From contig OZ242005.1 in NCBI GenBank assembly GCA_965204725.1, positions 4,816,079 to 4,880,078 of the forward strand: a stretch of 64,000 nucleotides of DNA, in the 5' to 3' direction. Position numbers and translations under genes: made by a program. Source of the DNA: Candidatus Latescibacterota bacterium (lineage in GTDB: Bacteria > Latescibacterota > UBA2968 > UBA8231). The notes under the pieces are model-generated. The model had not been told where the DNA came from. It was given only the letters and a program-made list of their open reading frames with translations, and ran no database searches. Positions 23,567 to 57,878 of this stretch are shown here, one piece after another; within the stretch, counting starts at the first letter, position 1, and each line of letters starts with the position of its first letter.

Positions 23567-23590
23567 GGTCTTTTTTACCTATGAGGCGTC

Positions 23591-23637
23591 ATTCCCGTGA
23601 AAGAACGTCACCCCGTGCCCCGACACGGGGCGGGAAT
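23591..23637 (-). repeat. 47-nt nested-hairpin element, copy 1 (second copy at 57879..57924)
   Basis: The outer stem pairs ATTCCCG with CGGGAAT. The inner hairpin is CCCCGTG-6 nt-CACGGGG. Its reverse complement matches 57879-57924 at most positions. Confidence 0.8.
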
Positions 23638-23722
23638 CCAGTCTTGAAGGATGTAGGATTGCTATATTCCCAGCATTGAGTGGTCCACTCCAAATGGTTT
23701 CGTTCGATAGCCGTTGCGCGGT

Positions 23723-26051: not shown

Positions 26052-26120
26052 GGTCTCCTCCAGCGCGTTACGTTGATCCGCCAAGCTACCGGAAACCTAA
26101 CAAAGAGCGGGCTATCACAC

Positions 26121-26968
26121 TAGAAGCTATCTCATAAATAGTCTGGCTGTGCTACGTTAGTGGTATTCCCTTTCGGAGGTATCTCTTATGGATCTTACAG
26201 ACGAACAGTGGTCGATAGTGTCCCCACTGCTGCCGGCGTGTCCCAAACGCCGCGATGGCCGGGGTCGTCCGTGGCGTTGTAACCGAGCGGTGCTCAATGG
26301 TATTCTGTGGATTCTCCGCACCGGGGCGCCTGGGCATGACCTGCCTGCTCGCTATCCGTCCTACCAGACCTGCCATCGTCGATTCCAACAGTGGTCGTCT
26401 GATGGCACCTTTGAACATATTCTGCGCACCCTCGCGCACGACTTGCATGAGCGCGGGGGCCTTGATGTGAGCGAATGCTTCATCGATGGCCTGTTTGTCG
26501 CGGCGAAAAAAGGGGGGACCAAGTGGGTCCGACCAAGCGGGGCAAAGGTACGAAGCTCATGGCAGTGGCAGACCGCGCTGGTCTTCCTATCGCCGTACTC
26601 ATCCAAAGTGCTTCGCCGCACGAAGTCACCCTCGTAGAAGCCACCCTGGAAAACCGATGGGTCCAGCCCCGACCGCAACGACTCATCGGGGACCGAGCCT
26701 ACGACTCGGATCGATTGGATGCGAGCCTGGCCGACCAAGGCATTGAGATGATCGCGCCGCATCGCCGCAATCGTACGCAGGCCAAAACCCAGGACGGGCG
26801 GCGGTTGCGGGGCTACAAAAGACGCTGGAAAATAGAAAGACTGTTTGCTTGGTTGCATAACTTCCGCCGCATCGTGGTTCGATACGAATACTATGCTGAA
26901 AACTACCTCGGCTTTGTACAACTCGGATGCATCCTCATACTGCTACGGTATTTATGAGATAGCTTCTA
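26121..26968 (+). mobile_element. IS5-family insertion sequence (IS427/IS1031-like), copy 1, 848 bp
   Basis: Perfect 20-bp terminal inverted repeats: TAGAAGCTATCTCATAAATA at 26121-26140, and its reverse complement at 26949-26968. Two overlapping transposase frames. TA at both junctions. An identical copy lies at 35986..36833. Confidence 0.9.
26188..26957 (+). CDS. IS5-family DDE transposase, orfA/orfB joined by a probable -1 frameshift
   Basis: orfA is 26188..26637 ([16 protein letters not shown]...RRDGRGRPW, the DUF4096-type N-terminus). orfB frame runs to 26957 ([21 protein letters not shown]...GDRAYDSD...[16 protein letters not shown], the DDE region). An A6G6 run at 26506-26517 sits in the overlap. 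Confidence 0.85.
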
Positions 26969-28203
26969 ATACCAAACACGCCGAGCACCGGCACATCGAC
27001 CGGACTGTACGCCGGCTCGGCTTGGAGGAGTTGCTGTACGTCGTCGGACGAGACCGAGGGATACGTCAGGTGCAGTCCCTTCTTGTTGGCGCACTCGTAC
27101 AAATCGCCATACTCGGCTCGGGGCACGGCGAGGAAACTGAAGACGTGACAGTCGTGTTCCAGTGCGGTCTCAATGGCCGTGCGCAGCACATCTTGCTTGC
27201 CGATTCGCCCTAATTGATCGACATAGCCGAGGATGAGCGTATCCGCTTCTGCAAGGACCGAAGCGAGCCGGGGCCGAATGCGTACCCCTATGTCGGACAA
27301 GCCCAACACGTGGCCCGCATCCTTACCAACCAGCCCCTTGCCCACTGGGTCGGCGATGCCCGTAATCTCAAACGCGAGTAGATCGTGCGCCCGGACCAAG
27401 GCGTGCATCTCCTTGTTGAACGGGTAGAGAGCCGCCTTCTGAATCCAAGAAAAACTTGAAGGATTGGCAGGAGGCTCCGGCGCGGCCACTGGGCGCGAGC
27501 GCATATTTGGGAGTAGCTCCGGCGTCCCCTGCAGCGCATTGGCCTGCAACTGCTCGCGCACCTGTTCCAACGATGCCCCCGGATGCGCTTGGCGAATCAA
27601 GGCAACCATGCCGGTAACGTGCGGCGCGGCAAAGCTGGTGCCCGACACCATCACATACCGAGGGTCGGTCCAGCAGACCCGCTGGGCATCGCCGCGGGCG
27701 ACGCACTCGATCTCGTCCCCCGGACGATAGTAGTACCCATAGCGTCCGCGGACCTTACCTCCCGCAACGCCAATAACATCTGACAACACGGCTGGGTAGC
27801 TTTCGCGCCCGTCATTGTGCTCGGCAGCGACGAGAATAACCTTGGCTTCACGGGCTTGGCGACAGACCTCGGCGAGTGCGTCCCGGAAGGTAACGTCCGT
27901 CGTGCCTAAGCTGAGGTTGACCACATCCATCCTCTGCTCAACCGCCCAGCGGATCGCCGCCAGCAGAGCCGGACCATCGGCGGTTAGGGACTCGTCAAAG
28001 AGGCGGACATCGTACAGGGTCGCTGTCGGCGCGATTTGGCGGATAATACCCGCGCAAGCCGTGCCGTGCCCCGCACTAGCAGCCGTTGGCGGAGACACCG
28101 AGTCCAAGAGTACCTCGTGAACCGCGCCGATCTTTTCGTGCGTCGGGTCAATACCCGAGTCGATGACGGCGACATGGACGGGATGATCGGGTTGATTCGT
28201 CAA
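26935..28203 (-). CDS. Subtilisin-like S8 serine peptidase, cytoplasmic, with its 3' end replaced by IS sequence
   Basis: Catalytic triad blocks are VAVIDSGID (Asp), GHGTACAG (His) and [12 protein letters not shown] (Ser). No signal peptide. Native sequence ends at about 26969; the last 11 codons ([11 protein letters not shown]) and the stop are encoded by the IS terminus. Confidence 0.85.
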
Positions 28204-28256
28204 GAGCTTCCTTTTGTTATACCTGATACGGCAGGTCCTATTCGGGTTTACGGGTG

Positions 28257-28940
28257 CTACTCTCGGTTAAAGTAGAAGGCGAGTTCTGGTTTTTGGCGGG
28301 CGCGTATGGCAATCGTCGAATCCATGCGGATCGCCGTTGCTAAGTCCGCGCTGGCCAACGCCGTTTCGCCGCGCCAAGCGCGGATGCGGGCTCGGTAATA
28401 CCACGCGACTCCTGTTTCGTGGTCGAGTAACACCGCCCGATTAAGCGCGTTTAACCCTTCGTCTAGTCTGTCTGTTCCTATAAAAAGAAGGCTTCGCTTG
28501 ATCCACGACTCAAGGTGGTCCGGGTCGTGCTGCAACGCGGTCTCAAGTGCTGCTTCTGCGGCCGCATAGTCCTTTTCTTGGAGGTGAAGCGAACCAATAA
28601 GTCCCCAGAAATGCGCGAAATGGGCGTCCGTGGAATCGGCGGCCAAGCAGGTTTTGTAAACATGTACGGCTTTCTCTACTTGTCGTAGGTCGCGCAGAAG
28701 ATCGCCCGTTTTCTGGCATAATCCCACGTTTTTGGGATCTAAGCGAAACGCAGCCGAATAAGACTCAAGTGCTTGCTCATAAGCGCGCCGAGCCATCCGG
28801 CGTTCATTGTTCGCCATGAGTCGATCTCCATGCCGTAAGTAAGTATCCCCATCCGATAGATCATATCTCACCATGAGATATAACAGTGAAAGTATCGTCA
28901 TGGAATTGATTACAACAGTAGAGACGACCCATTTTCTCAC
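28257..28940 (-). CDS. Membrane-anchored TPR-repeat protein
   Basis: N-terminal TM helix (VVSTVVINSMTILSLLYLMV) followed by TPR-like helical repeats (AYEQALESYSAAFRLDP..., AEAALETALQHDP...). Confidence 0.7.
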   Translation of the reverse strand: MRKWVVSTVVINSMTILSLLYLMVRYDLSDGDTYLRHGDRLMANNERRMARRAYEQALESYSAAFRLDPKNVGLCQKTGDLLRDLRQVEKAVHVYKTCLAADSTDAHFAHFWGLIGSLHLQEKDYAAAEAALETALQHDPDHLESWIKRSLLFIGTDRLDEGLNALNRAVLLDHETGVAWYYRARIRAWRGETALASADLATAIRMDSTIAIRARQKPELAFYFNRE

Positions 28941-29686
28941 GGTACAGAATCCAACCTATAAACTCTAGAGGAGAAAACTAATTCTGCTACTATATTGGCA
29001 ACGCCGTGTAGCACAATACAGGCTCCAATTGAACGAGATCGTTCATAGTAAAGAACAAGCACGAGACCTAAACCCAAATGAGGTAAAAGTGCCAAAAACG
29101 TTCCTTCCGTATTGTAGTGACATAAAGCAAACAGTATTACATTGGTTATAACAGCCCATACAAAAGATAAATGCCTTTTGAGGTAGGGATACAGAATACC
29201 TCTAAATAGCCACTCCTCCACTAGAGGAATGACAATGACACCCTGTAATAATCTTATAATTGATAAATCGGGTAGGTGCATTACGGGGGGGACATAACCG
29301 GCTGATCGAGATAGATTCGCTGGAACCGTAATCAACAAGACTAAGAAAACAGCCAGCCAGACTTCTCTACCCATACCATATAGAGACAGTTCTATCTGCT
29401 TGGGCACAGTTCCTACAATGAGATGAAAACAGGCAAGCATCAAAATCATCGCGGCAGCATGGGATCCAAAGAGGTAAATCGTGACGATTTTCATATCCCG
29501 CAACAGCAAAGACTCCTCTACCCAGTTATCGACACAAGCGTTTCTGAGTGCAATAAAAAAGAATAAAATGGCGAACTGTAGGATGACCAAGATAAGGTTC
29601 CATGGACACTCCCATTCTTGCCCTCGCATGGTATCCCAAGTGTTGATCACGATCCTATATCCCGTCTTAATGTACACACGATGCAC
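28937..29686 (-). CDS. CPBP (CAAX protease/bacteriocin-processing, Abi) family intramembrane protease-like protein
   Basis: Contains EEWLFRG (the EExxxR motif), FALCH and HGVAN blocks within a multi-TM protein. The true start may be an internal Met. Confidence 0.75.
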   Translation of the reverse strand: MHRVYIKTGYRIVINTWDTMRGQEWECPWNLILVILQFAILFFFIALRNACVDNWVEESLLLRDMKIVTIYLFGSHAAAMILMLACFHLIVGTVPKQIELSLYGMGREVWLAVFLVLLITVPANLSRSAGYVPPVMHLPDLSIIRLLQGVIVIPLVEEWLFRGILYPYLKRHLSFVWAVITNVILFALCHYNTEGTFLALLPHLGLGLVLVLYYERSRSIGACIVLHGVANIVAELVFSSRVYRLDSVP

Positions 29687-29808
29687 TCTGAGTGCTGGCT
29701 GTGCGGATGTATCTGCATCCTGCTCAGGTAGTTATAAGACGATGACAGCCTATGGGCATCCGCTTTGGCTGCAATGGATACCGTGATGGCTGTTCCAAAT
29801 AACCTAGT

Positions 29809-30510
29809 TTACCCTGCGCTGATCGAGTATTTTACCCAAGTGGCCCCCGCTGCAAAGAGTGTCTGTAGAGACCAGAAGATTGCAACGGCGAAGGCCGCTT
29901 GGAGGCGTTTGAGTGCGCATATGCGACTCAAGCCCAAGACGAGAAGCCCATAGTACCAGAAGCTGAAGGGGTTGATATTCATAAGTACAGTTTTGGTTAT
30001 CGGATGCAGTTCCCCATGCCAGAGGAGGTCTAAGCCAATAGAAATAGCTAGCTCATCTACCGTTGCTTGGCCTGTCTGAACTTTCATTATGCTTATACCC
30101 GCCATCAGCACCCCAGCAATGAAAGTCGTCATGTTGGAATAGGCGACTAGAGAGAAGATCATCTTGAATTCCGCCAAGCCCTCTAAGACTTGGACGATGA
30201 GCCATATCGCGAACGAGGAAAAGAACCATAGAAGCAGTATGCTGGGAAGGGTGGCGATGGTCGCCACGTAGTGGACAGTACGATTGACCTCCCTGACCTG
30301 TTTCAAGTCCGCCGATGGTATGGAGACTGACATCTGTTCTATAACAGCCTCTTGCAGCAGGGGGAAGGTGAGCCAAGTTATCAGAGTGGATCCCATACCG
30401 ATAGCGAGGAAGGGGGCTAACCAGTTAGGGTGCTCGAGGATCTGCCGAAAAGCATGTGAAGGCGACCAAATTATCCAGTATAAATTGCGAAAGGTAAGTG
30501 CGGTATCCAT
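29809..30510 (-). CDS. Yip1-domain-like polytopic membrane protein
   Basis: 233 aa. The N-terminus MDTALTFRNLYWIIWSPSHAFRQILEHPNWLAPFL followed by five hydrophobic helices is a layout typical of bacterial Yip1/DUF1282 proteins. The family call is by resemblance. Confidence 0.55.
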   Translation of the reverse strand: MDTALTFRNLYWIIWSPSHAFRQILEHPNWLAPFLAIGMGSTLITWLTFPLLQEAVIEQMSVSIPSADLKQVREVNRTVHYVATIATLPSILLLWFFSSFAIWLIVQVLEGLAEFKMIFSLVAYSNMTTFIAGVLMAGISIMKVQTGQATVDELAISIGLDLLWHGELHPITKTVLMNINPFSFWYYGLLVLGLSRICALKRLQAAFAVAIFWSLQTLFAAGATWVKYSISAG

Positions 30511-30529
30511 GGCGGTCGTATTCTTGGTT

Positions 30530-31081
30530 TTAGAGCAGGTGGCTACTTGGGTTTAGGGACCTATAACCCACTTCCCGACGTTGCAGTATGCCCTGTTCAT
30601 TTAAAAAAAGCAGCGTCGGGACGCGAACTATCCCTAGACGTTCGCGCAACTGAGTTTGGCAACCGAATAATACCAGAAATGAGCCGGTGATGTGCTGCCC
30701 GGCACCGCTAGGCAGTAAGGGGTGTTCTCTGATTACAGCAACGATCTCGACATTCATGATCGACCTGCGGCTTTGCCACTGTTTCAACTCGTCTAATTTA
30801 GTATGGCAAAAGCTGCATTCGAGATCGAGAACGGCGACAATCAGTTTTTTTTCTCGAAAGTCTTCGAGGTGGACGGCATTGCCTTGTCCGTCTTTGAGAT
30901 CAATTGAGGGCAAAGGTTGACCGATGCGGGCACTGTGTTTCGTTTTGCTGGTCGTTCCCATCCATAGGAACCCGACGGTTGTCGCTAAGGCGAGTGAAGA
31001 TAGTACCACGAGTGCCCGTATTCGGCGATTTACGCGCCTTCCACTAGCCATTGTCCTGCCGCTTCTGTAGGATCGAATCAA
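30530..31081 (-). CDS. TlpA-like thioredoxin-fold thiol:disulfide oxidoreductase, membrane-anchored
   Basis: Signal anchor (ALVVLSSLALATTVGF), a CxxC motif in LDLECSFCHTKL, and a cis-Pro region VRVPTLLFL. Confidence 0.75.
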   Translation of the reverse strand: MIRSYRSGRTMASGRRVNRRIRALVVLSSLALATTVGFLWMGTTSKTKHSARIGQPLPSIDLKDGQGNAVHLEDFREKKLIVAVLDLECSFCHTKLDELKQWQSRRSIMNVEIVAVIREHPLLPSGAGQHITGSFLVLFGCQTQLRERLGIVRVPTLLFLNEQGILQRREVGYRSLNPSSHLL

Positions 31082-31502
31082 AGAGGATTTTGGCCAGAGC
31101 TACTCGTTCCCTCTCTACGAGCTTTGCCTGCACCACAGTACCTTCCAAGTTGTACGCGAGGCGGTCGAAATCGACTTCCCCTTTGAGGGTGATCCAGACC
31201 CGGGTCGCGTCAGGTTCGTAGTCGATACGCCCGTTGATCTGTGCTATAATGGCACGGAGAACCTCTTGTTCGTCATAAGTAATATCAGCATAGTGGCATT
31301 CGCGTAGCAGACTCAGGCGCATATCTGGGATGTCCGCCTCCAATATCCAATCTGGTCCTCTGCGGTGGAGCAAACCCTCCAATTCTAGACCGACGTTCAC
31401 ACGTATAGTAGCTAGCCCGATCACCATAAACATCAGGATAAGCGTCGTGCCGAATAACAGGACGCCAACTTTCCATTCCAGCTTACGGGGGATTTTCATC
31501 AC
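31044..31502 (-). CDS. Membrane-anchored hypothetical protein
   Basis: 152-aa ORF with one N-terminal TM helix (VGVLLFGTTLILMFMVIGLATI). It is tightly packed between ABC and thioredoxin genes. Confidence 0.55.
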   Translation of the reverse strand: MMKIPRKLEWKVGVLLFGTTLILMFMVIGLATIRVNVGLELEGLLHRRGPDWILEADIPDMRLSLLRECHYADITYDEQEVLRAIIAQINGRIDYEPDATRVWITLKGEVDFDRLAYNLEGTVVQAKLVERERVALAKILFDSILQKRQDNG

Positions 31503-31510
31503 GAGTTTAC

Positions 31511-33271
31511 CTAGATATAAGGCTGATGAAAATTTGCAAAAGGGCCATTTTGATTGATAAGCTCGTTATAGGTACCTGCTTCGACAATTTTCCCTCCAGA
31601 GAGGACGTGGATGATGTCGGCAAGAACCAAGGACGTAGATTGATGAGCTATCAAGAGCGTTGTCCGGTCCCTAGTTGCCCTTTTGAGTATGCGAAGGACT
31701 GTCTGTTCCGTGTTGCTGTCGAGCGAGGACGTTGCTTCATCGAGAATGAGAATCTGCGGATTGCGTATAATTGCCCTAGCCAAAGCTAGGCACTGCTTTT
31801 GACCGCCCGAAAGCTGGACTCCCCCAGATCCGATGCGTGTATCGATACCTGCGGGAAAGTGCTGTATGAACTCCATACAATCCATCTCTTCTAGGGTCTG
31901 TTCTATCGCATGGTAAGTAGCATTAGAAGTCCCGTAAGCAACATTCTCTCGAATGCTGCCTGTAAAGAAAGACGCATCTTGTCCTACCCATCCGACAACA
32001 CCACGCAGATGATCCAGATTGTAGGAGTTTGCGTTGACTCCGTCTATGCGAAGCTCACCGGAGGTTGGCTCGTAGAACCGGACCAACAGGTGAGCCAAGG
32101 TGGTCTTCCCCGATCCTATCTTCCCGACCACGGCAGTGACTTGGCTGGGCTCCAACGTCAAGTCGATTCCGTTTAGCACCGGTAGCCCCTTGTCATAGGA
32201 AAAGTAGATGTTTTCGTACACCACTTTGCCTTTTCTAATCCGGTATTTGTTCTGAGGAACCTTTTTTTCGAGAGGCGTTTCCATCATTTCGACGACTCGC
32301 TTCAAAATACCTATGCCTTGGCGAAAACTGACGTATAGTACCGACAACTGGTTGACGGGACCGTAAACGTACGCCACCAAAGTGTGGAAGGCCATAAACT
32401 GCCCGAGGGTAAGCAGACCTTCCATGATCGAGTACGCGCCGTACCAGAGGACAGCCAGTCCACTTATGCTGTAGAGAAATATCTGCAGCAATTGAGCACT
32501 GACCATTGTCGCGTCACGTTGTAGGCGGCTCTCGGCTTCTCGACGCAAATAACCCGAAAGCCTCAGAACCTCCTTCCTCGTTCCGCCAAAGACCTTGGCT
32601 GCCAAGGCCGAATCCAAAGACTCTATGCGCATAGAGTTGGTCTGACTCTTCCTCTCCTGTGTCGCGGCACTGTATTTTTGGATGCGTCGCCCGAAGCGGA
32701 TATTCGTCCAGACAAAGGCTGGCAGAACTAGGAGAACGACTGAGGTCAGTGTTGAATTGAGGGAGAACATGATCACCAAGGCAATGGCGATGAGCGACAA
32801 ACTGCTCAAACCCTCAATGTACGTTCCTGCCATCAGCGTGTTTAACTGACGTACATCGTCACTGATGCGGGTGGAAAAGTAGCCAGGGCCGCGATTGAGG
32901 AGAAAGGAAACAGGAGCCTCAAGTACGGAGCGAAACAGTTTCAATTCCATATTGAAAAAAACGCGCCGCGAAAACACCAGTAGAAGGTAGCGATGTAGAA
33001 AACCTAGACCCAATCCCAGCAAGGTGGTAAGGATCAGGGTCGCGCATATGACGTTCAGTGCATGGATTTGGCCATTGGCTATAACCCGATCAATGATATA
33101 GATGGTCAATACTGGCATCGGTGACGCGAGGATGGTAGTGAACAGCATGCATACACCCGCTTCCACAGCACGCAGCCAGTAAGGAGAGAAGAAAGGGAGC
33201 AACCGTTGAAGTGATGCTAGCATCTCCAGCGATCTTTCCATTCTATTTCGTATATCTTCTTTTATAGTCAT
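31511..33271 (-). CDS. ABC exporter, fused permease + ATPase (type I exporter), no visible N-terminal C39 peptidase domain
   Basis: Six-TM N-terminal half. Walker A is GKIGSGKTT, signature is LSGGQKQ, and Walker B is ILILDEATSSLD. Confidence 0.85.
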   Translation of the reverse strand: MTIKEDIRNRMERSLEMLASLQRLLPFFSPYWLRAVEAGVCMLFTTILASPMPVLTIYIIDRVIANGQIHALNVICATLILTTLLGLGLGFLHRYLLLVFSRRVFFNMELKLFRSVLEAPVSFLLNRGPGYFSTRISDDVRQLNTLMAGTYIEGLSSLSLIAIALVIMFSLNSTLTSVVLLVLPAFVWTNIRFGRRIQKYSAATQERKSQTNSMRIESLDSALAAKVFGGTRKEVLRLSGYLRREAESRLQRDATMVSAQLLQIFLYSISGLAVLWYGAYSIMEGLLTLGQFMAFHTLVAYVYGPVNQLSVLYVSFRQGIGILKRVVEMMETPLEKKVPQNKYRIRKGKVVYENIYFSYDKGLPVLNGIDLTLEPSQVTAVVGKIGSGKTTLAHLLVRFYEPTSGELRIDGVNANSYNLDHLRGVVGWVGQDASFFTGSIRENVAYGTSNATYHAIEQTLEEMDCMEFIQHFPAGIDTRIGSGGVQLSGGQKQCLALARAIIRNPQILILDEATSSLDSNTEQTVLRILKRATRDRTTLLIAHQSTSLVLADIIHVLSGGKIVEAGTYNELINQNGPFANFHQPYI

Positions 33272-33330
33272 TAAGAAGCGTTCTTAAAACTAGGGTTTCG
33301 TACTCTCACTCGGCTCAAAGTATCTTAGGA

Positions 33331-33366
33331 TTAGCACGGCGCGACTATTTATGAGATAACTTCTAG
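33331..33366. mobile_element. Solo relic of the IS left terminus
   Basis: 33343-33366 (GACTATTTATGAGATAACTTCTAG) matches the outer end of IS copy 2 (36811-36834) at 23 of 24 positions. Weaker identity extends about 12 nt further inward. Confidence 0.7.
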
Positions 33367-34160
33367 CAATCGCCGGTCGCCTTCGTTAAACGTAGGAACA
33401 GGTCTTCCAATGTAGAGTCATTGGCTTTCTGTTGCAGTTCCCTCACCTTCACCTTGTCGTTCAATGATTCGGTTGAGGCGGAGAAGACTATCTTGCCTTT
33501 ATGACAGATCGCTACCTTTTCACACAATTCTTCCACTATGGGTAGAATATGGGACGTCAAGAAGACCGTCTTGCCTTTTCCAGCGGCATCCTTGAGGAGG
33601 TCCTTTATCATCTTGACCGACCGGGGATCGATTCCGGTAAAGGGTTCGTCGAGGAAGAGAAGTTCTGGGTCGTGCAGCAAAACCGCCGCCAGTGCCAGTT
33701 TCTTCTTCATCCCCGCGGAGTAGGTGCTGATCTGCGCGTCGCTAGCACTGCCTAGATCGAAAAGCTCTAGGAGATCGGCGGTACGTTGACGCAGTGTCGG
33801 CTTGTCGAGGCCGAACATCGCTCCGGAGAAATACAGATGTTCCTGGCCTGTGAGCGATTCGTAAAGGGCAAGGTCCTCGGCCATGATACCGATGCGCTTC
33901 TTGATCTCTGTCGCGTTGACCGTCATCTCTTCCCCCAGAATGTGAACCGTCCCCGCGCTAGGTGCCAAGAGCCCCGACAGCAAGTTGGTCAGCGTGGACT
34001 TTCCTGCCCCGTTTGGTCCGATGAGTCCGAGTATCACCCCTGGAATAACGTCGATGTCGACATTGTCTATCGCCAAGAGTCTTCCGTATTTCTTTGTTAG
34101 TCCGACCGCACGAATTGCGTATTCCATGAGACGACCTTCGTTTGCTTTATATTCTTCCAA
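33363..34160 (-). CDS. ABC transporter ATP-binding protein (ABC-2 type)
   Basis: Walker A is GPNGAGKST, signature is YSAGMKKK, and Walker B is LLFLDEPFTGID. Its stop codon lies inside the IS relic. Confidence 0.85.
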   Translation of the reverse strand: MEEYKANEGRLMEYAIRAVGLTKKYGRLLAIDNVDIDVIPGVILGLIGPNGAGKSTLTNLLSGLLAPSAGTVHILGEEMTVNATEIKKRIGIMAEDLALYESLTGQEHLYFSGAMFGLDKPTLRQRTADLLELFDLGSASDAQISTYSAGMKKKLALAAVLLHDPELLFLDEPFTGIDPRSVKMIKDLLKDAAGKGKTVFLTSHILPIVEELCEKVAICHKGKIVFSASTESLNDKVKVRELQQKANDSTLEDLFLRLTKATGDC

Positions 34161-34170
34161 AGCCCATTCT

Positions 34171-35856
34171 TTATGAGCAGAAACGGATGAGAAACAAGTC
34201 CCTTTTATCCAGCCACACCTCGGCTGCCTTCTGCAAAGTGAGAGTATAGAAAATCGCTGTGGTAATACACATAGCTGCTAGCAGCGACAGTAGGATTATC
34301 GGCTGCCTGACGACCTCGTGAAAGTAATACAGGCCCGCGCCAATTATTATAGCGGAAAGGCTCAGGCCTACTATGGCTAGAAAATCGGCCTGTAGAGAAA
34401 GGTAACGCCCGACGATGTTACCCGGTGAGAGCTTGAGCGGATAGAGTACAGAGGCTATGTTACCAATTAAGGTATGCAGCAGAGACAGGTACAGCATGAT
34501 CAAGATGATCGCCAGCCTTTCGGACCAGTCGGTATGTCCCCAACTAAGGTAGAAGGTCCACGCCATACTCGGCCCTGCAATCGCCCCTTGGACAAGCAGA
34601 TATGCTAGATTTTTACCGACTAGGATGGTTTTTGGCTGGATTGGAGCTAAAAAATTAAAGACGACTCCCGTAGATTCGAGACCGAAAATATTGTAGAAAA
34701 TCGCATAGGGTATTACACATATTGGCAATAACAACAGCAGTGAATAGGGGCCGACGACGACCCCTTTTGCGACGTGTATCAGAGGGATGGCAATGCCCCA
34801 AAGCAGGGTGGATAACAGAATGAGACGCAGCCGATTTTCGCGTAAGATATAAATCAATTCTTTGGCCGCGACGTTGGCCACTTGGCAGTTGAACAGCCCC
34901 TCGAACGCGCTGGTCAGTTTCTCGAACGTGTTGACATTGTATAAAATCGCCTCTCCCCCTTGAAGAGGCCGCTCGTACAATCTCTTCTTGAGCAGAAAAT
35001 AGGCAATTATTCCACAGCTAACGGCATAGACGATAAGGCCAACCGCTGGCCAGCCTGCGAGCCTGCCAGCGTGAAAACCAAGTAGCAGTTCGCTGACTAG
35101 GCCGGGAGGGGTCAAAACCCAATACGCGGCAGAGTGGTTGATCGGGGCGATGAGAGTATCGATATCGACATAGTGTCCAAGCATCGAATAGACGGAACCG
35201 AGCAGGATAGCAGAGAAGAAGATCAGCTTCCCACGATGCCTACTAAGCGACCGGATCAAGTCAGCCAGCAGCAGGCTAAGCATGTATACTAGCATGTGGT
35301 TGGCTAGCACGAATAGGGCGATAATGAAAAGTAAACCGACTGCAGGAACGAGACCTTGCTTCATTCCATAGAGCGTACCTAGCCACACAGCAAGAAGATA
35401 AAAGATCAAAAGCCAAGGGTTGAAGAGCCCCAACGTTACATCGGCTGCGTAGAGTCTCCATAGCCTGTAAGGGAACCGGACTAGTCGGAACAGTCGAGAC
35501 ATATCGGGCGTGGATATACCTCGGAACAAGCCCAGCAGTACCCATGCTATGGACAGATAGGCAAAGGTGGCTAGTACCAAACGGGGCAGAATATATGCAC
35601 CCTGGGTAGTTAGAAGTAGCTGAGTCGAATAGTAGAACTGAGTTATAAAAAAAATACCCCAGCTAATACCTAAAACGAGTACGGTGCCCATTAATAAACA
35701 CCATGTCCTCTCCCTCTTTGCCCAGTTGAGCGAAGCGTGGTATTTCAACCAGAGTATATAGACGACCATCATCATATTGGCGCAAATTCCTAAGTTGTGG
35801 CAGAAATCCCATTGCAGCCGTTCACTACGACGGTACGATATACCTAATAGCTGCAC
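34171..35856 (-). CDS. Polytopic membrane protein, probable permease partner of the adjacent ABC ATPase
   Basis: 561-aa ORF, almost entirely hydrophobic helices, 11 nt upstream of the ATPase gene. GTG start on the track, so the true start is uncertain. Confidence 0.65.
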   Translation of the reverse strand: MQLLGISYRRSERLQWDFCHNLGICANMMMVVYILWLKYHASLNWAKRERTWCLLMGTVLVLGISWGIFFITQFYYSTQLLLTTQGAYILPRLVLATFAYLSIAWVLLGLFRGISTPDMSRLFRLVRFPYRLWRLYAADVTLGLFNPWLLIFYLLAVWLGTLYGMKQGLVPAVGLLFIIALFVLANHMLVYMLSLLLADLIRSLSRHRGKLIFFSAILLGSVYSMLGHYVDIDTLIAPINHSAAYWVLTPPGLVSELLLGFHAGRLAGWPAVGLIVYAVSCGIIAYFLLKKRLYERPLQGGEAILYNVNTFEKLTSAFEGLFNCQVANVAAKELIYILRENRLRLILLSTLLWGIAIPLIHVAKGVVVGPYSLLLLLPICVIPYAIFYNIFGLESTGVVFNFLAPIQPKTILVGKNLAYLLVQGAIAGPSMAWTFYLSWGHTDWSERLAIILIMLYLSLLHTLIGNIASVLYPLKLSPGNIVGRYLSLQADFLAIVGLSLSAIIIGAGLYYFHEVVRQPIILLSLLAAMCITTAIFYTLTLQKAAEVWLDKRDLFLIRFCS

Positions 35857-35985
35857 CGTCAGCAGCGAAGCTACCCCAGAGTCCTGACCCTAGGGTAGCT
35901 TCTAAGTTGCTGCGTCGCTGCTGATACTGCTATAGTTATGATTCTGCGAGTAAGCCTAATTCGCAAAATCAAAACACCACGGTAT

Positions 35986-36833
35986 TAGAAGCTATCTCAT
36001 AAATACCGTAGCAGTATGAGGATGCATCCGAGTTGTACAAAGCCGAGGTAGTTTTCAGCATAGTATTCGTATCGAACCACGATGCGGCGGAAGTTATGCA
36101 ACCAAGCAAACAGTCTTTCTATTTTCCAGCGTCTTTTGTAGCCCCGCAACCGCCGCCCGTCCTGGGTTTTGGCCTGCGTACGATTGCGGCGATGCGGCGC
36201 GATCATCTCAATGCCTTGGTCGGCCAGGCTCGCATCCAATCGATCCGAGTCGTAGGCTCGGTCCCCGATGAGTCGTTGCGGTCGGGGCTGGACCCATCGG
36301 TTTTCCAGGGTGGCTTCTACGAGGGTGACTTCGTGCGGCGAAGCACTTTGGATGAGTACGGCGATAGGAAGACCAGCGCGGTCTGCCACTGCCATGAGCT
36401 TCGTACCTTTGCCCCGCTTGGTCGGACCCACTTGGTCCCCCCTTTTTTCGCCGCGACAAACAGGCCATCGATGAAGCATTCGCTCACATCAAGGCCCCCG
36501 CGCTCATGCAAGTCGTGCGCGAGGGTGCGCAGAATATGTTCAAAGGTGCCATCAGACGACCACTGTTGGAATCGACGATGGCAGGTCTGGTAGGACGGAT
36601 AGCGAGCAGGCAGGTCATGCCCAGGCGCCCCGGTGCGGAGAATCCACAGAATACCATTGAGCACCGCTCGGTTACAACGCCACGGACGACCCCGGCCATC
36701 GCGGCGTTTGGGACACGCCGGCAGCAGTGGGGACACTATCGACCACTGTTCGTCTGTAAGATCCATAAGAGATACCTCCGAAAGGGAATACCACTAACGT
36801 AGCACAGCCAGACTATTTATGAGATAGCTTCTA
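35986..36833 (-). mobile_element. IS5-family insertion sequence, copy 2, inverted relative to copy 1
   Basis: Same 20-bp termini as copy 1. All six-frame ORF translations are identical to copy 1. TA at both junctions. Confidence 0.9.
35997..36766 (-). CDS. IS5-family DDE transposase (orfA/orfB, probable -1 frameshift), copy 2
   Basis: Protein sequences identical to 26188..26957. The C6T6 run at 36437-36448 is the complement of the A6G6 slippery run. Confidence 0.85.
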
Positions 36834-36843
36834 GCAAGACTGG

Positions 36844-37038
36844 CTAGAAGCAAGAAAAAGCGACGCTATGGACTGCTACGGAAACAGCGAAAGCACCGAC
36901 TATGCCGCCCGTGGGGACGAACGTGGCTACGCTAAGGCCGAGACCTAGAACGGACAATCCGCATTCGACCCCGTATCCGCACACAGACGCGTTTCCGCCA
37001 TACGGACGCAACGTGCGTTTCCTCAAAGTACGGGTCAT
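36844..37038 (-). CDS. 64-aa Gly/Ala/Val-rich, 3-Cys hydrophobic peptide (candidate bacteriocin-like precursor or membrane toxin)
   Basis: AGGAGG lies 8 nt upstream of ATG 37038 (AAAGGAGGTGATAGATATG). Product: MTRTLRKRTLRPYGGNASVCGYGVECGLSVLGLGLSVATFVPTGGIVGAFAVSVAVHSVAFSCF. The track ORF starts 3 codons earlier at a GTG inside the RBS. Confidence 0.6.
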   Translation of the reverse strand: MTRTLRKRTLRPYGGNASVCGYGVECGLSVLGLGLSVATFVPTGGIVGAFAVSVAVHSVAFSCF

Positions 37039-37140
37039 ATCTATCACCTCCTTTCTATATTGGATTTGTGAATCCGTTCGGCGACCCGCGGGTCTGCAAC
37101 TATGTAACTAGTATTAGACACGCGTCTACTGAACGGTTCA

Positions 37141-38595
37141 TTAAGTCAACCTGTGGGAGATGCCCATGCTTTGAAAAATAGCCTGGGCCGTAGCCTTGTA
37201 TTCCGCAGCTGCATTAGTCCTCCCTTCTTGAGTGGCGATCTGAGACAAAGCTTCTAGTGCCTTGCCTTGGTCAATTCGACTGCCAACTTGCTCGCTCTTA
37301 TGCAACACCTCTTGGCAACATGAAGCAGCCTTCTCGAAATGTCCCTGACTAGTATATACTGAGCTTAAGTAATGGCCTATCTGCATTTCTAAGGTAGGTA
37401 GGCCCATCTTATAGCATTGGTCTACGAACCGTCGGAGAGAGAGAATTGTCGCCTCCACATCACTTCCGCCGGACAGCATTGAGAGCAGGATTTCGCACTC
37501 TAGAGCCAAGGGACGCAACCCTGATTGCTGAGCTAGAGTCAGAGCCTTGGCCAAGAGCTCCTGAGCTTGGGCGGTAATTCCCAACCGCAACAGGCACCTG
37601 CCCCATGTCAAACGGCTTCTGACTTGACCGCGCCTGTAGCGGAGGTGTTCCTCTAAGTCAATCGCCTCTGCGAAATAGCGGCCGCCGTTTTTCATGTCAC
37701 CGCTGCTTAGATGCATTAGTCCGCGTAAGCCCAACACTCTCCCTTTGGCGTGAGCGTCGTCCAAGCTCTCGTATAGCTCTTGCGCTGCGTCAATGTGGTG
37801 GCTAGCGTCATTCCTCCCTTGCAAAAGCCATAGGTAGGCCAATTGCAGGTGCAGCCGGCCTACGACATTAATTCTCCGCCTGCTTATTTGGACCAGTGCT
37901 TCACGGAGCACCGTTTCGCCATCGTGGAACTTGCCCATGGCCGTGAGCAATCCGCCTTTGACCAACGCTCTCGACGCGGCTGCCTCCACTGTATCCTGTC
38001 GTTTCGTGATGCTGTAAATTCCTTCGTCGCAAAGCTGGAGGCCTTGGTAGTATTGTCCGCGGTGCATGCAGAGAAGAGCTAATCGAGTCTTGACGAAATT
38101 CACGTGGTGGCCCTCGTCTTCCGTTTTCAATACGCCGGTCGCCTCTTCGAGACACCTGTTAGCCCCGGTCCAATCCCCCATATCTTGCAGGACTTGGGCG
38201 CGATTGATTTGTATCAGTCCTTGGAACTGCTCCCATCCGCGCTCTGCGGCGAGGTTTGCGGAACGAGAGAAGACAGCTTCGGCACTGTATAGATCGGATG
38301 TGAGGACACAGGCTACTCCTTGTGCCGCTTGGGCTATCAGGCTTGCGGTGGCCGTGTCGGAAGAAGCGTACAATTCCGCCGCTTCCTCGTATTTCTTAGC
38401 TGCGAAAGCCTCTTCGCCCCGCCGAAAACGATCGATTGCTAGTTCGTGCTTTGGCTCGGGTAGGGACTGTAATTCTTCCTGTAAGTCTTTTTCATTTGGC
38501 TTGAAAAACTGCTGACTATCGTCGGGTAGTTGAACTTCTGCGAAACCCTCTACCTCTTTCGCTTTCAGCTTGCGTATCCAGTGGTTCCTGATCAT
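37141..38595 (-). CDS. Soluble TPR-repeat protein (484 aa), no other recognisable domain
   Basis: Repeated about 40-residue helical hairpins with TPR-like A/L/Y/G spacing along the whole length. No TM helix, no HTH that I can see. Confidence 0.7.
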   Translation of the reverse strand: MIRNHWIRKLKAKEVEGFAEVQLPDDSQQFFKPNEKDLQEELQSLPEPKHELAIDRFRRGEEAFAAKKYEEAAELYASSDTATASLIAQAAQGVACVLTSDLYSAEAVFSRSANLAAERGWEQFQGLIQINRAQVLQDMGDWTGANRCLEEATGVLKTEDEGHHVNFVKTRLALLCMHRGQYYQGLQLCDEGIYSITKRQDTVEAAASRALVKGGLLTAMGKFHDGETVLREALVQISRRRINVVGRLHLQLAYLWLLQGRNDASHHIDAAQELYESLDDAHAKGRVLGLRGLMHLSSGDMKNGGRYFAEAIDLEEHLRYRRGQVRSRLTWGRCLLRLGITAQAQELLAKALTLAQQSGLRPLALECEILLSMLSGGSDVEATILSLRRFVDQCYKMGLPTLEMQIGHYLSSVYTSQGHFEKAASCCQEVLHKSEQVGSRIDQGKALEALSQIATQEGRTNAAAEYKATAQAIFQSMGISHRLT

Positions 38596-39037
38596 ATGGT
38601 GCGTCCCTCAGTTTTAGCAGCCTTTCGCTTCTATGGTTGAAATCACTAAGAGAAACGAGCGCACGAAACAGAAGCCCGGCCCATGGAATTCCCCCACGCT
38701 TAGGACATTACTTCGGCTATCCGGTCCCGAGGGACGGTCGTTTTGCCCAAGCACTTGGGATTCAGCGGTTAGAGCCGGCATCTTCTAACTCCATGCGCTG
38801 AAAGGGAAGGCCCCGAGCACAAGTGGCTCAAGGTTGACTTTATCTGGGGAAGGTCCGCACCGCGCAACCGCGCATACCGGCGCACCCATAGCGGCTCCCA
38901 AGGCATACTCCGCTGTGGTAATAGAGCCGTACAGACCGCTACCCACTCGGCACCGAATGGCTCGCCAAGGGTGAGCAAGGCGATCCTCCGGCCCTTGATG
39001 GGGCTTAAAAACTCGTAGCCTAGAGGTCGAAAATTGA

Positions 39038-39050
39038 GGGGGGGGGGGGG
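39038..39050 (+). repeat. G13 homopolymer in a gene-poor spacer
   Basis: Counted directly: 3 G at 39038-39040 plus 10 G at 39041-39050. Confidence 0.9.
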
Positions 39051-39364
39051 TAAGTCCTTGTCTTACAACGACTTACGACGATTTTCTTAGGTAAAATTTT
39101 AGGACTGGAAGCAGATGTAAATATCGCGGCGGGCTTTGCCGGCGGCAACGTCGTCGCAAATGTGGGGTGATTTCTCATCTTCCAGTTCGTCCGTACGATG
39201 GGCGGAACAGCAGGCTCCGCGTTAGGGCTATAAGCATAAGGAAACGCCAAAAGGCTTGTCAAGAGAAAATTTAGCACATCCTGCCGCAAGCCGCGTCCCT
39301 TCCACGGCGATTGCGGCCGGCGGCCCATTTGCCTAATCTGAGTATTCTTCCCAAAGGAACGGCC

Positions 39365-39862
39365 ATGAGCCCCGAAGAACTCGACTATACCGAGTGGCGC
39401 GACAGCACGGGCGCACCGCTGACGAAAAGGCCCGACCGGCTCGGCGTGGCGACCAACGGCTTTATCCGCGACAAGACCGGCAAAATCCTACTGCAACAGC
39501 GTGCGGACAACGGCTTTTGGGGCATGCCCGGCGGCCAAGTCGAACTCGGGGAATCCGTTGAGCAGGGCGTGGTGCGCGAAGTCCATGAGGAAACTGGCTT
39601 ACAGGTGCGCGTTGAGCGGCTGATTGGGGTGTACTCGGGGCTAGAAAGCTATCCGTTCATGCGCTATCCCAACGGCACCATCGTCCACTACCTCACCGTC
39701 GTCTTTGCCTGCGACCCGGTCGCCGGCGCGTTGCGGCTCTCGGCCGAAAGCACGGACCTCGGCTATTTTGCCGCCGATGCCCTGCCCGCCCAGACCTTGC
39801 TCTCGCACCGCATCCGCATTGAGGACGCCCTGACCGGCCTAGTGTACCCGTTTATTCGCTGA
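39365..39862 (+). CDS. NUDIX hydrolase
   Basis: Nudix box GMPGGQVELGESVEQGVVREVHEETGL. I moved the start to ATG 39365 (MSPEELDY...). Confidence 0.85.
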   Translation: MSPEELDYTEWRDSTGAPLTKRPDRLGVATNGFIRDKTGKILLQQRADNGFWGMPGGQVELGESVEQGVVREVHEETGLQVRVERLIGVYSGLESYPFMRYPNGTIVHYLTVVFACDPVAGALRLSAESTDLGYFAADALPAQTLLSHRIRIEDALTGLVYPFIR

Positions 39863-42838: not shown

Positions 42839-43047
42839 TCAGGGTGATAAAGTATAGTCAAATTATCGTATTGGGCGTGAGGCGATACTAGACCAGCGTC
42901 CTCATTTCCCGCTGGCCATCGGGCACCCCTTGCCATTTAGCAAGAGCTCGACATAATAACTGTAGGCCGAACAACCGCCGAAAGCATCGGATAAGTTGCT
43001 CGCTGCGCTCCCGATTCGGCGCGGCGTTGAACGAACAGGAGCATGAC

Positions 43048-44226
43048 ATGACCAAGACCGTGATTCTCGATACGAATGTGCTTTACGATATAGGATTGAA
43101 TCGAGTCCGCGTTGAGGACGTCAGGCGGCCTAGAGAGCATCTCTGTTACTCTCCAATCTCAATTATTGAGTTGGTATCTAAACTAGATGGCGGGTCGTTT
43201 GCAGACCGAAAGGCAGCGGCTGGCGTTATCCTCAAGCACCGCATAGACGAACTCCCGGACCCCGAATCACATCTGACTACGGCATTTGGCTACAAGCTAG
43301 CGGAACCTGCCCCTTCATACTCCGACGCTGTCCGAGCCTTGGCTAAAGGTCAGAGCCTTGAAGAGGTGAGGCGCGGCGTACCAGACTACGAGGTTCGGGT
43401 CCGACGGAGCTTGAATGTACCGTTTGCAGCGACTTGGCGTGAGAAGGGTGAGCAAGAATGGGTGGATTCTCTCATCACCCTGATGGAGGATAATATCCCG
43501 GGGTTTCAAAAGTGGTACACAAAGGATCCAGCAAAACGGTTCTCGTCTGTGCCTAAACTTCGAGGAGAGGAGAAAGAGAGGTTTCTCGCCGGAATGAAGT
43601 CAAGAGAGTGGTCTGCTCGAATTATATCCGCTTGTCAGATGCGCGCCTTCTTCAAAGCGGACAAAAACGACCTCCGTGTATTTACTAAGCAGAGAGCAAA
43701 TGGATTAGCCGCGGCCATTCCCAAGATAGAGTGCTACTCCCATATATACACGCACTACTTGATTCGCCTAATGACTGAGGGGGTCTTACCCAAGAAGAAC
43801 GATAGCGGGGATATTGATTTCTTTCTCTACTCGACTGACGATGACCACGTCGTGGCGACCAAAGACAATAGGTGGATCAACATTGCGGAGGCCGCAGGGT
43901 TCGCCCGAAGGATACGCCGGCACGGATGCGAGCTCAGAGAAGCCGCATCGGCTGAAAGTCGGAATCGTCCAGAGGAGGAGGCCGCCAGATATGGCAATAT
44001 GGACTTTGAAGACTGCATTGAAATCCGACCCGGTGTTCGCAGTGGCAAGCCCTGTTTCAAAGGCACCCGAATTACGGTCTATGATGTATTGGAATACTTA
44101 GAGGGGGGGATGACGGAGGTTGAGCTTTTAGACGATTTTCCGACTCTGACACCGCAGCACATCCGCGCCGCCCGGGCCTTTGCCGATGCCCATAAACTTC
44201 AGTTCGCACCCGGTTCCACGGCGTGA
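43048..44226 (+). CDS. Fusion protein: roughly 320-aa PIN-like N-terminal domain + C-terminal DUF433 (COG2442) domain
   Basis: N-terminus MTKTVILDTNVLYD (PIN first Asp), SPISIIEL, GDIDFFLY and HVVATKDNRW (PIN last-strand-like). C-terminus IEIRPGVRSGKPCFKGTRITVYDVLEYLEGGMTEVELLDDFPTLTPQHIRAA is a typical DUF433 sequence. AGGAG lies 6 nt before ATG 43048. Confidence 0.6.
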   Translation: MTKTVILDTNVLYDIGLNRVRVEDVRRPREHLCYSPISIIELVSKLDGGSFADRKAAAGVILKHRIDELPDPESHLTTAFGYKLAEPAPSYSDAVRALAKGQSLEEVRRGVPDYEVRVRRSLNVPFAATWREKGEQEWVDSLITLMEDNIPGFQKWYTKDPAKRFSSVPKLRGEEKERFLAGMKSREWSARIISACQMRAFFKADKNDLRVFTKQRANGLAAAIPKIECYSHIYTHYLIRLMTEGVLPKKNDSGDIDFFLYSTDDDHVVATKDNRWINIAEAAGFARRIRRHGCELREAASAESRNRPEEEAARYGNMDFEDCIEIRPGVRSGKPCFKGTRITVYDVLEYLEGGMTEVELLDDFPTLTPQHIRAARAFADAHKLQFAPGSTA

Positions 44227-57871: not shown

Positions 57872-57878
57872 GGCTGGC

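Follow-up and report, generated by a model that had tools for sequence, protein, structure and literature searches.

This report concerns eleven co-directional genes on the minus strand of a 64,000-nucleotide stretch of DNA from a Candidatus Latescibacterota bacterium (assembly GCA_965204725.1, contig OZ242005.1, positions 4,816,079 to 4,880,078), which we call the window; related loci and contigs carry L numbers, and proteins carry P numbers. With a probability that we put at roughly 60%, the region is a decayed member of a family of leader-dependent clusters, similar to those for peptides synthesized on the ribosome and modified after translation (RiPPs), that serve the production and export of a peptide and the protection of its producer. 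The family would be built around a fusion of an S8 subtilase to a DUF1611-like P-loop domain. The window's own copy is broken by two insertion sequence (IS) elements; it is the family, and a testable role for DUF1611, that are of interest.

The initial annotation, made from the letters alone, had described an AT-rich island of eleven co-directional genes in a given order. Indeed, the list of open reading frames (ORFs) and domain searches returned the same genes in that order, with G+C contents of 0.43–0.53 in the cluster genes against ~0.60 in the flanks. The first gene of the cluster (37141–38595) encodes a soluble 484-residue protein, TPR484, with a MalT/AfsR-like region of tetratricopeptide repeats (TPRs; Pfam and NCBIfam matches) and no transmembrane (TM) segment. 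The 64-residue precursor peptide follows (36844–37038); the strong ribosome-binding site claimed for it is there, as AAAGGAGG 8 nucleotides upstream of the ATG. Next come a 534-residue permease with ~12 TM segments in two tandem ABC-2 (type V) halves, so described from its fold and its distant relatives (34171–35775), and its partner, a DrrA/ABC-2-type ATPase (33363–34160; ABC_tran 1.3e-29, TIGR01188 drrA 1.3e-70). They precede an MsbA/HlyB-like ABC exporter with fused membrane and nucleotide-binding domains (31511–33271; ABC_membrane and ABC_tran) and a 152-residue protein anchored at its N-terminus by a single TM segment (31044–31502; residues 12–30). A membrane-anchored TlpA/ResA-like thiol:disulfide oxidoreductase with a CSFC motif (30530–31081; AhpC-TSA, Redoxin, ResA 1e-8; TM residues 23–41), a Yip1/YknW-like protein with five TM segments (29809–30510; Yip1 6e-13), a CPBP (Rce1-like) intramembrane glutamic protease family protein (28937–29686; Rce1-like 1.9e-19), and an anchored TPR protein (28257–28940; TPR matches, TM residues 5–23) follow. 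A simple hydropathy count agreed with the predicted TM segments of the anchored proteins. The final gene encodes an S8 subtilase (ORF 26935–28203; QhpE-like S8, 2.4e-42) that is present and lacks a signal peptide, as had been proposed; it lies outside the interval 28257–38595 allotted to the island, and IS copy 1 truncates the gene at its 3′ end.

Does the 64-residue ORF encode a genuine peptide? In a word-indexed search of 5.8 billion proteins, the permease family was rare (four clusters). On contigs that carry a 32%-identical permease (P0004), a 73-residue gene overlaps the permease start, and its product aligns over its full length with the window peptide: the two share L-x-K-R-x-L-R-x-Y-G, a Cys before GLGxSVA, and a terminal FSC. 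A profile search returned only three peptide clusters, namely the window's own, P0005, and P0006/P0014, the last from a Latescibacterota metagenome-assembled genome (MAG). All three lineages have the order peptide, permease, ATPase, fused ABC exporter. Across them the small ORF is conserved at 36–41% identity and its C-terminal Cys is invariant; the gene thus has homologues beside the same permease in two distant lineages, in keeping with the conservation on which the proposal in the initial annotation depends.

The peptide consists of a ~25-residue leader (MTRTLRKRTLRPYGGNASVCGYGVE) and a hydrophobic, Gly/Ala-rich core of 39 residues with a Cys at both ends. In L023, L024, L042, and L093, small ORFs whose starts resemble that of the window peptide lie upstream of the fusion gene. 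A hidden Markov model (HMM) of the first ~30 residues was iterated three times. The model matched 32 ORFs in 28 loci, every one on the strand of the S8-DUF1611 gene, and nothing in reversed sequences; its single match in the window was the 64-residue peptide (E=1.4e-8). The leader motif is M-x-K-[LI]-x-K, a basic stretch, and then [VAI]-x-[AG]-[YC]-x-x-[ED]. Behind it, the cores are hypervariable and unrelated between subfamilies. A ribosomal precursor, a conserved leader, a variable core, and an adjacent gene for the S8 fusion together correspond to the generic definition of a RiPP cluster. Manual inspection added precursors in L033, L036, L038, and L044. All eight precursors of the window type have a hydrophobic, Gly/Ala-rich core of ~40–55 residues with one Cys at each end, the first at core position 1 and the second within the last three residues. 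Because every one of these cores starts with Cys, the leader is likely cleaved just before Cys26.

A divergent S8-DUF1611 subgroup (39% identity) carries short precursors of its own (L089 354–539, 10921–11217, and 11787–12002; L086 16593–16769). Up to three lie in tandem, with the common leader MKKLTKRNRKHNRKVVFGYH-x-EC, so that the leader family includes multi-precursor loci.

The window's copy of the cluster has been damaged by two copies of an IS427-like element of the IS5 family. The assignment reflects a length of ~0.85 kb, DUF4096 and DDE_Tnp_1 in two overlapping ORFs, and a short target duplication. Copy 2 (35981–36834, minus strand, 854 nucleotides) sits between the precursor gene and the remaining operon, where the initial annotation had placed it. 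It is missing from the near-identical strains L011–L018, which present a clean empty site (36832/35988, with a 3-nucleotide overlap). Copy 1 (26120–26973, plus strand) is 100% identical and inverted relative to copy 2. The stop codon of the S8 gene falls within copy 1: what remains (26974–28203, minus strand) is the 5′ two-thirds of a gene for an S8/DUF1611 (TIGR04066-like) fusion, with the S8 domain complete and the P-loop domain lost. The truncated product, of 422 residues, is P0051 in the source-genome annotation, and the remnant keeps positions 2–156 of the 361 in the TIGR04066 model. Homology to intact strains stops at 26966, on the side of copy 1, and past that element the window lacks the genes for a carrier protein, an AziU2-like 201-residue protein, a BtrH-like 332-residue protein, and a 128-residue protein (at least 8.7 kb in total). 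The "IS relic" said to follow the ATPase gene is a 24-nucleotide match to the terminal inverted repeat of the IS (33343–33366; 23/24 by blastn-short, E=4e-5); it lies in a stretch 99.8% identical to IS-free strains and is therefore presumably found there too. Since copy 1 has cost the cluster its P-loop domain and its carrier-protein module, and copy 2 uncouples the precursor, the window copy would be at best an export and protection island, not a producer.

What, then, does an intact cluster contain? Metagenome scaffolds with 99.8% identity to the window encode exactly this 64-residue peptide and have neither IS, which confirms that IS-free versions exist. In these strains (L017 to L020), the intact fusion protein has 627 residues and comprises S8, DUF1611_N, and the DUF1611 P-loop domain. 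Against TIGR04066, the L017 fusion scores 111 bits over model positions 2–360 and the L008 fusion 133 bits, both below the cutoff of 200. After the fusion gene come an 86-residue acyl carrier protein (ACP) and then proteins of 201, 332, and 128 residues. The ACPs of the family bear the canonical LDS serine motif; the 86-residue protein matches generic NCBIfam ACP models, and TIGR04069 is not among its matches at E≤0.1. The 201-residue protein resembles the AziU2/Azi28 structures (E=7e-9). The match of the 332-residue protein to BtrH_N is weak (E=1.2e-3); the representative of its family matches BtrH_N at 4.6e-12, along with DUF4872 and Peptidase_C39_2. In L008, a fusion 51% identical to that of the window lineage is accompanied by an ACP and a transglutaminase-core protein, and in L022 the ACP is itself fused to a transglutaminase core. 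BLASTP found no similarity between the 332-residue protein and the L008 transglutaminase.

Within the DUF1611-like domain, a Walker-A-like loop, G-T-x3-G-K-F-T, is invariant, and the domain matches the DUF1611 structure 2g0t; together these suggest nucleotide-dependent chemistry. No LanB/C/M, YcaO, or lasso cyclase match to Pfam or NCBIfam models was found among the genes of the window cluster or of the intact L017 cluster. The initial annotation had gone further and found no modification enzyme. For the intact locus this is wrong, as it has the S8-DUF1611 fusion, the carrier protein, the AziU2-like protein, and the BtrH-like protein; the apparent lack arose because IS decay removed the module from the window.

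Beyond the intact L017 cluster, on the opposite strand (14865–19699), lie genes for a stand-alone DUF1611 protein, an MR_MLE racemase-family protein, Peptidase_C39_2, PfkB, and Amidohydro_2 proteins. This set, lost or moved in the window genome, presumably resembles the DgcN/DgcA pathway for D-glutamate.

The fusion is widespread. At least 1191 relatives were found at E≤1e-10. The best 120 are 57–96% identical, and 119 of them have both domains, the exception being the window's truncated P0051. A scan for the DUF1611-like domain in one genome per species gave 79 loci, most of them in Candidatus Latescibacterota, often with several on a chromosome (five in one case); the remainder belong to Gemmatimonadota, KSB1, Melioribacteraceae/Rosettibacter, and, at 32% identity, Lachnospiraceae. 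The window itself is most closely related to Latescibacterota MAGs.

To count neighbours, genes were called and clustered around the fusion gene in 81 loci, and representatives were annotated. The family of the fused ABC exporter was present within 10 genes in 63 loci, usually 3–6 genes upstream; this figure is an upper estimate, because the family as defined by BLAST also includes stand-alone ABC ATPases. Directly after the fusion gene comes an ACP gene, in 49 loci according to clustering and in 65 according to tblastn. Upstream, the count was 47 loci for HlyD-type adaptors, 30 for CPBP proteins (1–3 genes away, the recurrence that the initial annotation had led us to look for), 15 for TPR proteins (accompanying CPBP), 15 for AraC-type response regulators, 10 for GNAT proteins, and eight each for TlpA and Yip1 proteins. 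Downstream are two BtrH-like families (26 and 13 loci) and AziU2-like proteins (11 loci). The gene after the ACP in four loci encodes a PP-binding domain and a condensation domain of the nonribosomal peptide synthetase (NRPS) type. Thus, the partner of the carrier protein varies among papain-fold, transglutaminase, and condensation-domain proteins; judged by sequence, it consistently belongs to a family in which the characterised members make amide bonds from donors held on a carrier, or to a close structural relative of one.

A subset of these loci shares the architecture of the window. The order is an AraC-type regulator (not always), TPR484, a precursor of 64–89 residues, the ABC-2 permease (one gene for ~540 residues, or two genes), the ATPase, the fused exporter, the small anchored protein, TlpA, Yip1, S8-DUF1611, and the ACP. 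It is found in the window lineage and in L035, L033, L036, L038, and L044, and in part in L025/L037, with TPR484 homologues at the equivalent position in L033, L035, L036, L038, and L044. An AraC-type response regulator often precedes TPR484 in these other genomes. The order from TPR484 to S8 thus recurs in at least six other species-level genomes, an outcome that strengthens the case for a functional unit made in the initial annotation. Genes of the radical S-adenosylmethionine (SAM) family adjoin the fusion gene only in the loci from Lachnospiraceae, Acetatifactor, and Melioribacteraceae/Rosettibacter; they lie far upstream in L060 and L061. None was found in the window, among the downstream genes of L017/L018, or in L008 or L022.

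Having defined the family, we scrutinized the transport and membrane proteins of the window. The permease itself has no Pfam match. A full HMMER scan of 1.84 billion representatives returned 379 distant relatives, a few of which match 12TM_1 or ABC2_membrane. An AlphaFold (AF2) model computed from only four aligned sequences had a mean pLDDT (predicted local distance difference test) of just 40; when the calculation was redone with 50 sequences, pLDDT rose to 87, with a predicted template-modelling score (pTM) of 0.86. The top Foldseek matches of this model were NosY, CcmB, ABCG transmembrane domains, and KpsM, with template-modelling scores of 0.5–0.6 on the target; NosY and CcmB were the best folds (0.55–0.60), and the best E-value was 0.12. 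Because these E-values are weak, we claim only the fold class: by its model, this is a tandem permease of the ABC-2 (type V) kind. It belongs to none of the defined families of nutrient or lipid exporters, membership in which would have told against a role in protection. In L036, L038, and L044, the equivalent protein is split between two genes (~230 and ~260 residues). A genome scan with the permease alignment found nothing, and from a metagenome scan came only L007, a distant permease on its own. The ATPase gene consistently follows the permease gene; its product scores 238 bits against the drrA model, under the trusted cutoff of 312. A DrrA-type ATPase together with an ABC-2-fold permease amounts to an ABC-2 pump, and the permease is a candidate subunit of a pump for self-protection.

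The fused exporter, a candidate peptide exporter, has no C39 match in Pfam or NCBIfam, in agreement with the initial annotation; its top NCBIfam models, all under cutoff, are MsbA-related or of type I secretion. Orthologues of the 152-residue anchored protein follow the exporter gene in L025, L033, L035, L036, and L038, and HlyD-like proteins fill this slot in L008 and L022. BLASTP found nothing between the 152-residue protein and these HlyD-like proteins, and hhalign aligned only the C-terminal 30 columns, with a probability of 6%.

The TlpA-like protein is restricted to window-type loci. A precursor with the Cys pair was identified in six of the TlpA loci (the window lineage and five others), and none was identified in L025/L037. 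The proposal that an extracytoplasmic thioredoxin handles the Cys residues of the peptide thus gains weight from the Cys pair in eight of eight precursors and from the confinement of TlpA to these loci. MauE also occurs only in window-type loci: L033, L035, and L036 carry a MauE/DoxX protein and a GT28-like glycosyltransferase. The Yip1 protein of the window scores 49 bits against Pfam Yip1 (cutoff 28.6) and 63 bits against YknW_fam NF052650 (cutoff 110), and it occupies the same position in L025, L033, L035, L036, L038, and L044. We regard it as a candidate protection component. Downstream in L038 are a second Yip1 gene and genes for HlyD and for a MacB-type (MacB_PCD/FtsX) permease; L033 and L036 have Yip1 and HlyD in the mapped range, with the MacB-type gene further downstream in L036. 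Yip1 is thus also found in full YknWXYZ-like modules, as the suggested link to the Ykn system would have it. The CPBP gene is 81% identical in nucleotide sequence to its L023 copy, and the best NCBIfam models for its product, MrtJ and MrtS, are both under cutoff.

From these components, a pathway can be sketched. Cleavage by the S8 domain, probably just ahead of the first Cys, would free the peptide of its leader. An activated acyl or aminoacyl group, supplied by the P-loop domain and the carrier protein, would then be moved onto the peptide by a carrier-protein-dependent amide-forming enzyme; in other loci this partner would be a carrier protein–transglutaminase fusion, or a peptidyl carrier protein (PCP) with an NRPS condensation-domain protein. 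The product would be exported by the fused ABC exporter with the small anchored adaptor, and outside the cytoplasm the anchored TlpA-like redoxin would form or edit a disulfide between the two terminal Cys residues. The ABC-2 pump (the 12-TM permease and the ATPase), Yip1, and CPBP would protect the membrane of the producer. The specific acylation chemistry is the tentative part of this scheme, and we would sooner bet against it than for it.

A bolder proposal, which we likewise consider doubtful, is that the products of the loci are ribosomal/thiotemplated hybrids and constitute a new class of peptides. A bifunctional enzyme would cut the leader with its subtilisin domain and charge a dedicated carrier protein with its DUF1611 P-loop domain; a papain-fold, transglutaminase, or condensation enzyme would then join the carrier-bound group to the new N-terminal Cys or, alternatively, a peptidyl-carrier thioester would close the peptide. 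The products would be acylated or cyclised membrane-active peptides with a terminal disulfide staple, and each genome would encode them at several paralogous loci that swap cassettes, across Latescibacterota and Gemmatimonadota. If these ideas are right, an uncultured candidate phylum bears a large and diversified family of peptide natural-product clusters, in whose chemistry a protease/P-loop fusion enzyme modifies a ribosomal peptide in dependence on a carrier protein. They would also give a testable function to the DUF1611/TIGR04066 domain and to the TIGR04066/TIGR04069 cassette of gut Firmicutes, and the leader motif can be used for genome mining.

The initial annotation held that the gene set matches no described class, which needs amending: there is a partial match to a "peptide maturation" cassette. 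This cassette (TIGR04066, TIGR04069, and TIGR04068, with a subtilase and an ABC transporter) has been noted in bacteriocin-like and sactipeptide-like clusters of Clostridia and Paenibacillus, for example in Roseburia intestinalis and as SacP23, and its chemistry is uncharacterised. The two systems share a DUF1611-related protein, an acyl-carrier-type protein, a subtilase, a fused ABC transporter, and small Cys-containing peptides, and it was Lachnospiraceae loci of this kind that the genome scan retrieved at 32% identity. They differ in that here the subtilase and the TIGR04066-like protein form one polypeptide; that the carrier protein is of the generic ACP type, with TIGR04069 not among its matches; that papain-fold, transglutaminase, or condensation-domain partners are added; and that the leader family is its own. 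Moreover, the radical SAM maturase is absent from the window lineage and from most of the mapped loci in Latescibacterota and Gemmatimonadota. The subtilase and the fused ABC transporter expected of the cassette are thus present and the radical SAM enzyme (TIGR04068) is not; for that reason, and because the TIGR04066 scores fall under the cutoff, we do not file the cluster as a member. On its domain content, it is instead a relative of that cassette with a fused protease/P-loop enzyme, distinct partners, and a distinct leader.

Other known systems resemble parts of the cluster. An oxidoreductase that acts on a peptide has a parallel in the sublancin and glycocin loci, in which a disulfide-stapled helical-hairpin peptide is encoded with the oxidoreductases BdbA/BdbB, a glycosyltransferase, and an ABC exporter. 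Shared with these loci are a hydrophobic peptide, predicted to have two segments, with a terminal Cys pair, a locus-encoded extracytoplasmic protein of thioredoxin fold, and, in some sister loci, GT28-like or GT1 glycosyltransferases; the differences are the lack of a SunS-type GT2 and of a C39 exporter and the presence of one Cys pair rather than two nested ones. In Bacillus subtilis, YknWXYZ combines the Yip1-family protein YknW with a membrane fusion protein and a MacB-type ABC pump, and it protects against SdpC. A Yip1/YknW-like protein is present in our cluster, and L038 groups the Yip1, HlyD, and MacB_PCD/FtsX genes; in the window, by contrast, Yip1 adjoins TlpA and CPBP rather than a MacB-type pump and falls short of the YknW cutoff. 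The export of class II bacteriocins and microcins is matched by a Gly-rich, hydrophobic peptide of small size that has its leader at the N-terminus, by a fused ABC exporter with an anchored accessory protein, and by an ABC-2 pump and CPBP nearby. The leader here, however, is basic, unlike the double-glycine consensus (YGG in the window, YGH and YGF in homologues), and the exporter is without C39, which leaves the cytoplasmic S8 fusion as the candidate leader protease. We therefore rejected a double-glycine/C39 bacteriocin, as both motif and domain are absent. A circular bacteriocin was rejected because it lacked a Pfam-recognised membrane partner.

For the modification module, the nearest parallels are CtaG, BtrH, AsbE, and the MllDE fusion, which are papain-like carrier-protein-dependent ligases, with AziU2/U3 the closest structural relatives of their fold (PMC12865890). 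The intact strains likewise have a stand-alone carrier protein beside BtrH_N-type and AziU2-like proteins, and one lineage, in a manner reminiscent of MllDE, fuses the carrier protein to a transglutaminase-core domain. The likeness is one of weak sequence similarity (E=1e-3 to 7e-9), and the candidate genes are absent from the window. The known enzymes act in non-ribosomal pathways on small-molecule acceptors, whereas here the likely acceptor is a ribosomal peptide.

Several observations weigh against a leader-dependent peptide cluster. A leader-bearing ORF was found in only ~30 of the 81 loci, which leaves many S8-DUF1611 loci with no identified substrate, and precursors of other subtypes often have 120–160 residues with acidic tails, long for RiPPs. 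As for the hydrophobic core, it may be no more than a membrane hairpin of two helices. What ties the carrier-protein chemistry to the peptide is gene neighbourhood and nothing else. That the DUF1611-like domain loads the carrier protein is guesswork, prompted by the P-loop motif and by DgcN, a DUF1611 protein that reportedly uses acetyl-CoA, though a literature search did not confirm this. The description of the 152-residue protein as a HlyD-like adaptor is a positional label only. For none of the members is a product, an activity, a transcript, or an immunity phenotype known. Finally, our literature search found nothing on DUF1611 in peptide maturation, nor any description of the S8-DUF1611 cluster family, the latter being weak negative evidence.

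Could the same biosynthesis serve a purpose other than antagonism? The product might be a processed and possibly acylated or glycosylated hydrophobic peptide that is retained in the envelope of its producer or serves as a signal, with the ABC proteins, Yip1, and CPBP engaged in sorting and quality control. Mrt-type CPBP proteins are sorting proteases, and MrtJ and MrtS, although under cutoff, are the best models here; many clusters start with genes for AraC-type response regulators and TPR proteins, a genome may hold up to five paralogous loci, and a length-variable homopolymer upstream (described below) would suit a phase-variable surface trait. Nevertheless, hypervariable cores behind a conserved leader, cassette swaps between close relatives, an orphan pump kept in the relative L001, and YknWXYZ-like modules are what one usually sees with antagonistic peptides and the immunity to them, and on their account we regard a non-toxin product as unlikely. 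A thiotemplated small molecule seems to us quite improbable. It would be made by S8-DUF1611, the carrier protein, and the transacylase in the manner of closthioamide or butirosin and then exported, and the small ORFs would be unrelated membrane proteins or regulators of the transporters. CtaG, BtrH, and AsbE do all belong to non-ribosomal pathways, a PCP and a condensation-domain protein are encoded in some loci, and ~50 of the 81 lack a leader-bearing ORF. Yet a small-molecule pathway does not sit well with the subtilisin that every close member joins to its P-loop domain, with a leader motif confined to the cluster strand beside the fusion genes, or with a related Firmicute cassette that accompanies a peptide-modifying radical SAM enzyme and Cys-rich peptides; moreover, no adenylation, polyketide synthase, or other building-block enzymes were seen in the S8-DUF1611 loci.

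That the genes are neighbours by chance is scarcely credible. Two identical, inverted IS copies do bracket 26974–35980, as they would in a composite element that had gathered unrelated membrane genes and a spurious small ORF. IS-free strains, however, show the same contiguous order, which refutes a composite transposon as its source; in addition, the order recurs in other species, and the small ORF is conserved with its invariant C-terminal Cys.

Returning to the RiPP-like cluster family, we compared the surroundings of the window copy with those of its relatives. In the Latescibacterota MAG loci L023/L026, the upstream non-coding region and the CPBP-TPR-S8-DUF1611 segment are 78–86% identical to the window, but the cargo differs (HlyD, a second CPBP, and a 127-residue precursor). 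With conserved ends and different cargo between them, cassettes are exchanged at a conserved locus. The relative L001 (~87% nucleotide identity) has only the last 84 nucleotides of the precursor gene, the permease, and the ATPase, with no IS; it was thus rejected as a locus with an intact precursor. This fragment (L001 9711–12380, corresponding to window 33367–36915) sits between homologues of window positions 51134 and 51093, so that the insertion site differs by ~12 kb in window terms. It looks like an orphan pump, and an orphan permease and ATPase are what would be expected of an orphan protection module. In every genome checked, the cargo lies 5–10 GC points below its own fusion gene and flanks. 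Because low G+C cargo characterises every related locus examined, it is a family trait that does not date a transfer, and we rejected it as proof of a recent one. For recent horizontal acquisition, the cassette swap relative to L023 and the relocated fragment in L001 offer indirect support only. Scans of the window for tRNAs and Rfam families gave no matches, and hence no tRNA-linked integration site was seen. Strain variation is also evident near the cluster: window 42864–44552 and L011 2610–4175 do not align, L011 having a different 292-residue DDE transposase gene and small ORFs there. The non-aligning L011 stretch adjoins a Type ISP restriction-modification gene and represents further IS-linked variation.

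The conserved non-coding leader region occupies 38596–39420 (minus strand; 78–86% identical to the region upstream of the L023 cluster). It contains a homopolymer of 13 G on the plus strand (39038–39050; C on the operon strand), ~440 nucleotides upstream of the first cluster gene. Sister strains agree with the window at 99.8% elsewhere but have tracts of 9, 10, 15, or 17 (L011 7992–8001, L012 26–42, L013 452–460, L014 274–288). The tract was also noted in L029–L032, and other species have a tract of 10–16 nucleotides upstream of their clusters with similar flanks, ACTTA-Cn-TCAATTTTCG. The homopolymer is either a phase-variable switch or an assembly error of the kind homopolymers invite. A scan for promoters and terminators gave nothing above shuffled sequences; the best promoter-like site, TTGACA-18-TATGCT, lies upstream of the homopolymer. 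A second C tract, of 14 nucleotides and with similar flanks, is located at 8756–8769, at the 5′ end of an ORF for 486 residues (8748–10208); it would encode a proline run and could act as a frameshift-type switch for that ORF.

Two repeats elsewhere in the window complete the description. An inverted pair of 59 nucleotides (23587–23645 and 57870–57928; 86% complementary, 34 kb apart) is GC-rich with an internal hairpin (CCCCGTGCCCCGACACGGGG) and may be a repetitive extragenic element. A direct repeat of 154 nucleotides (51447–51600 and 52661–52814; 71% identity, 1214-nucleotide spacing) corresponds to two adjacent paralogous genes for ~395-residue proteins with no Pfam match, which are also found in L001 (6879–9300).

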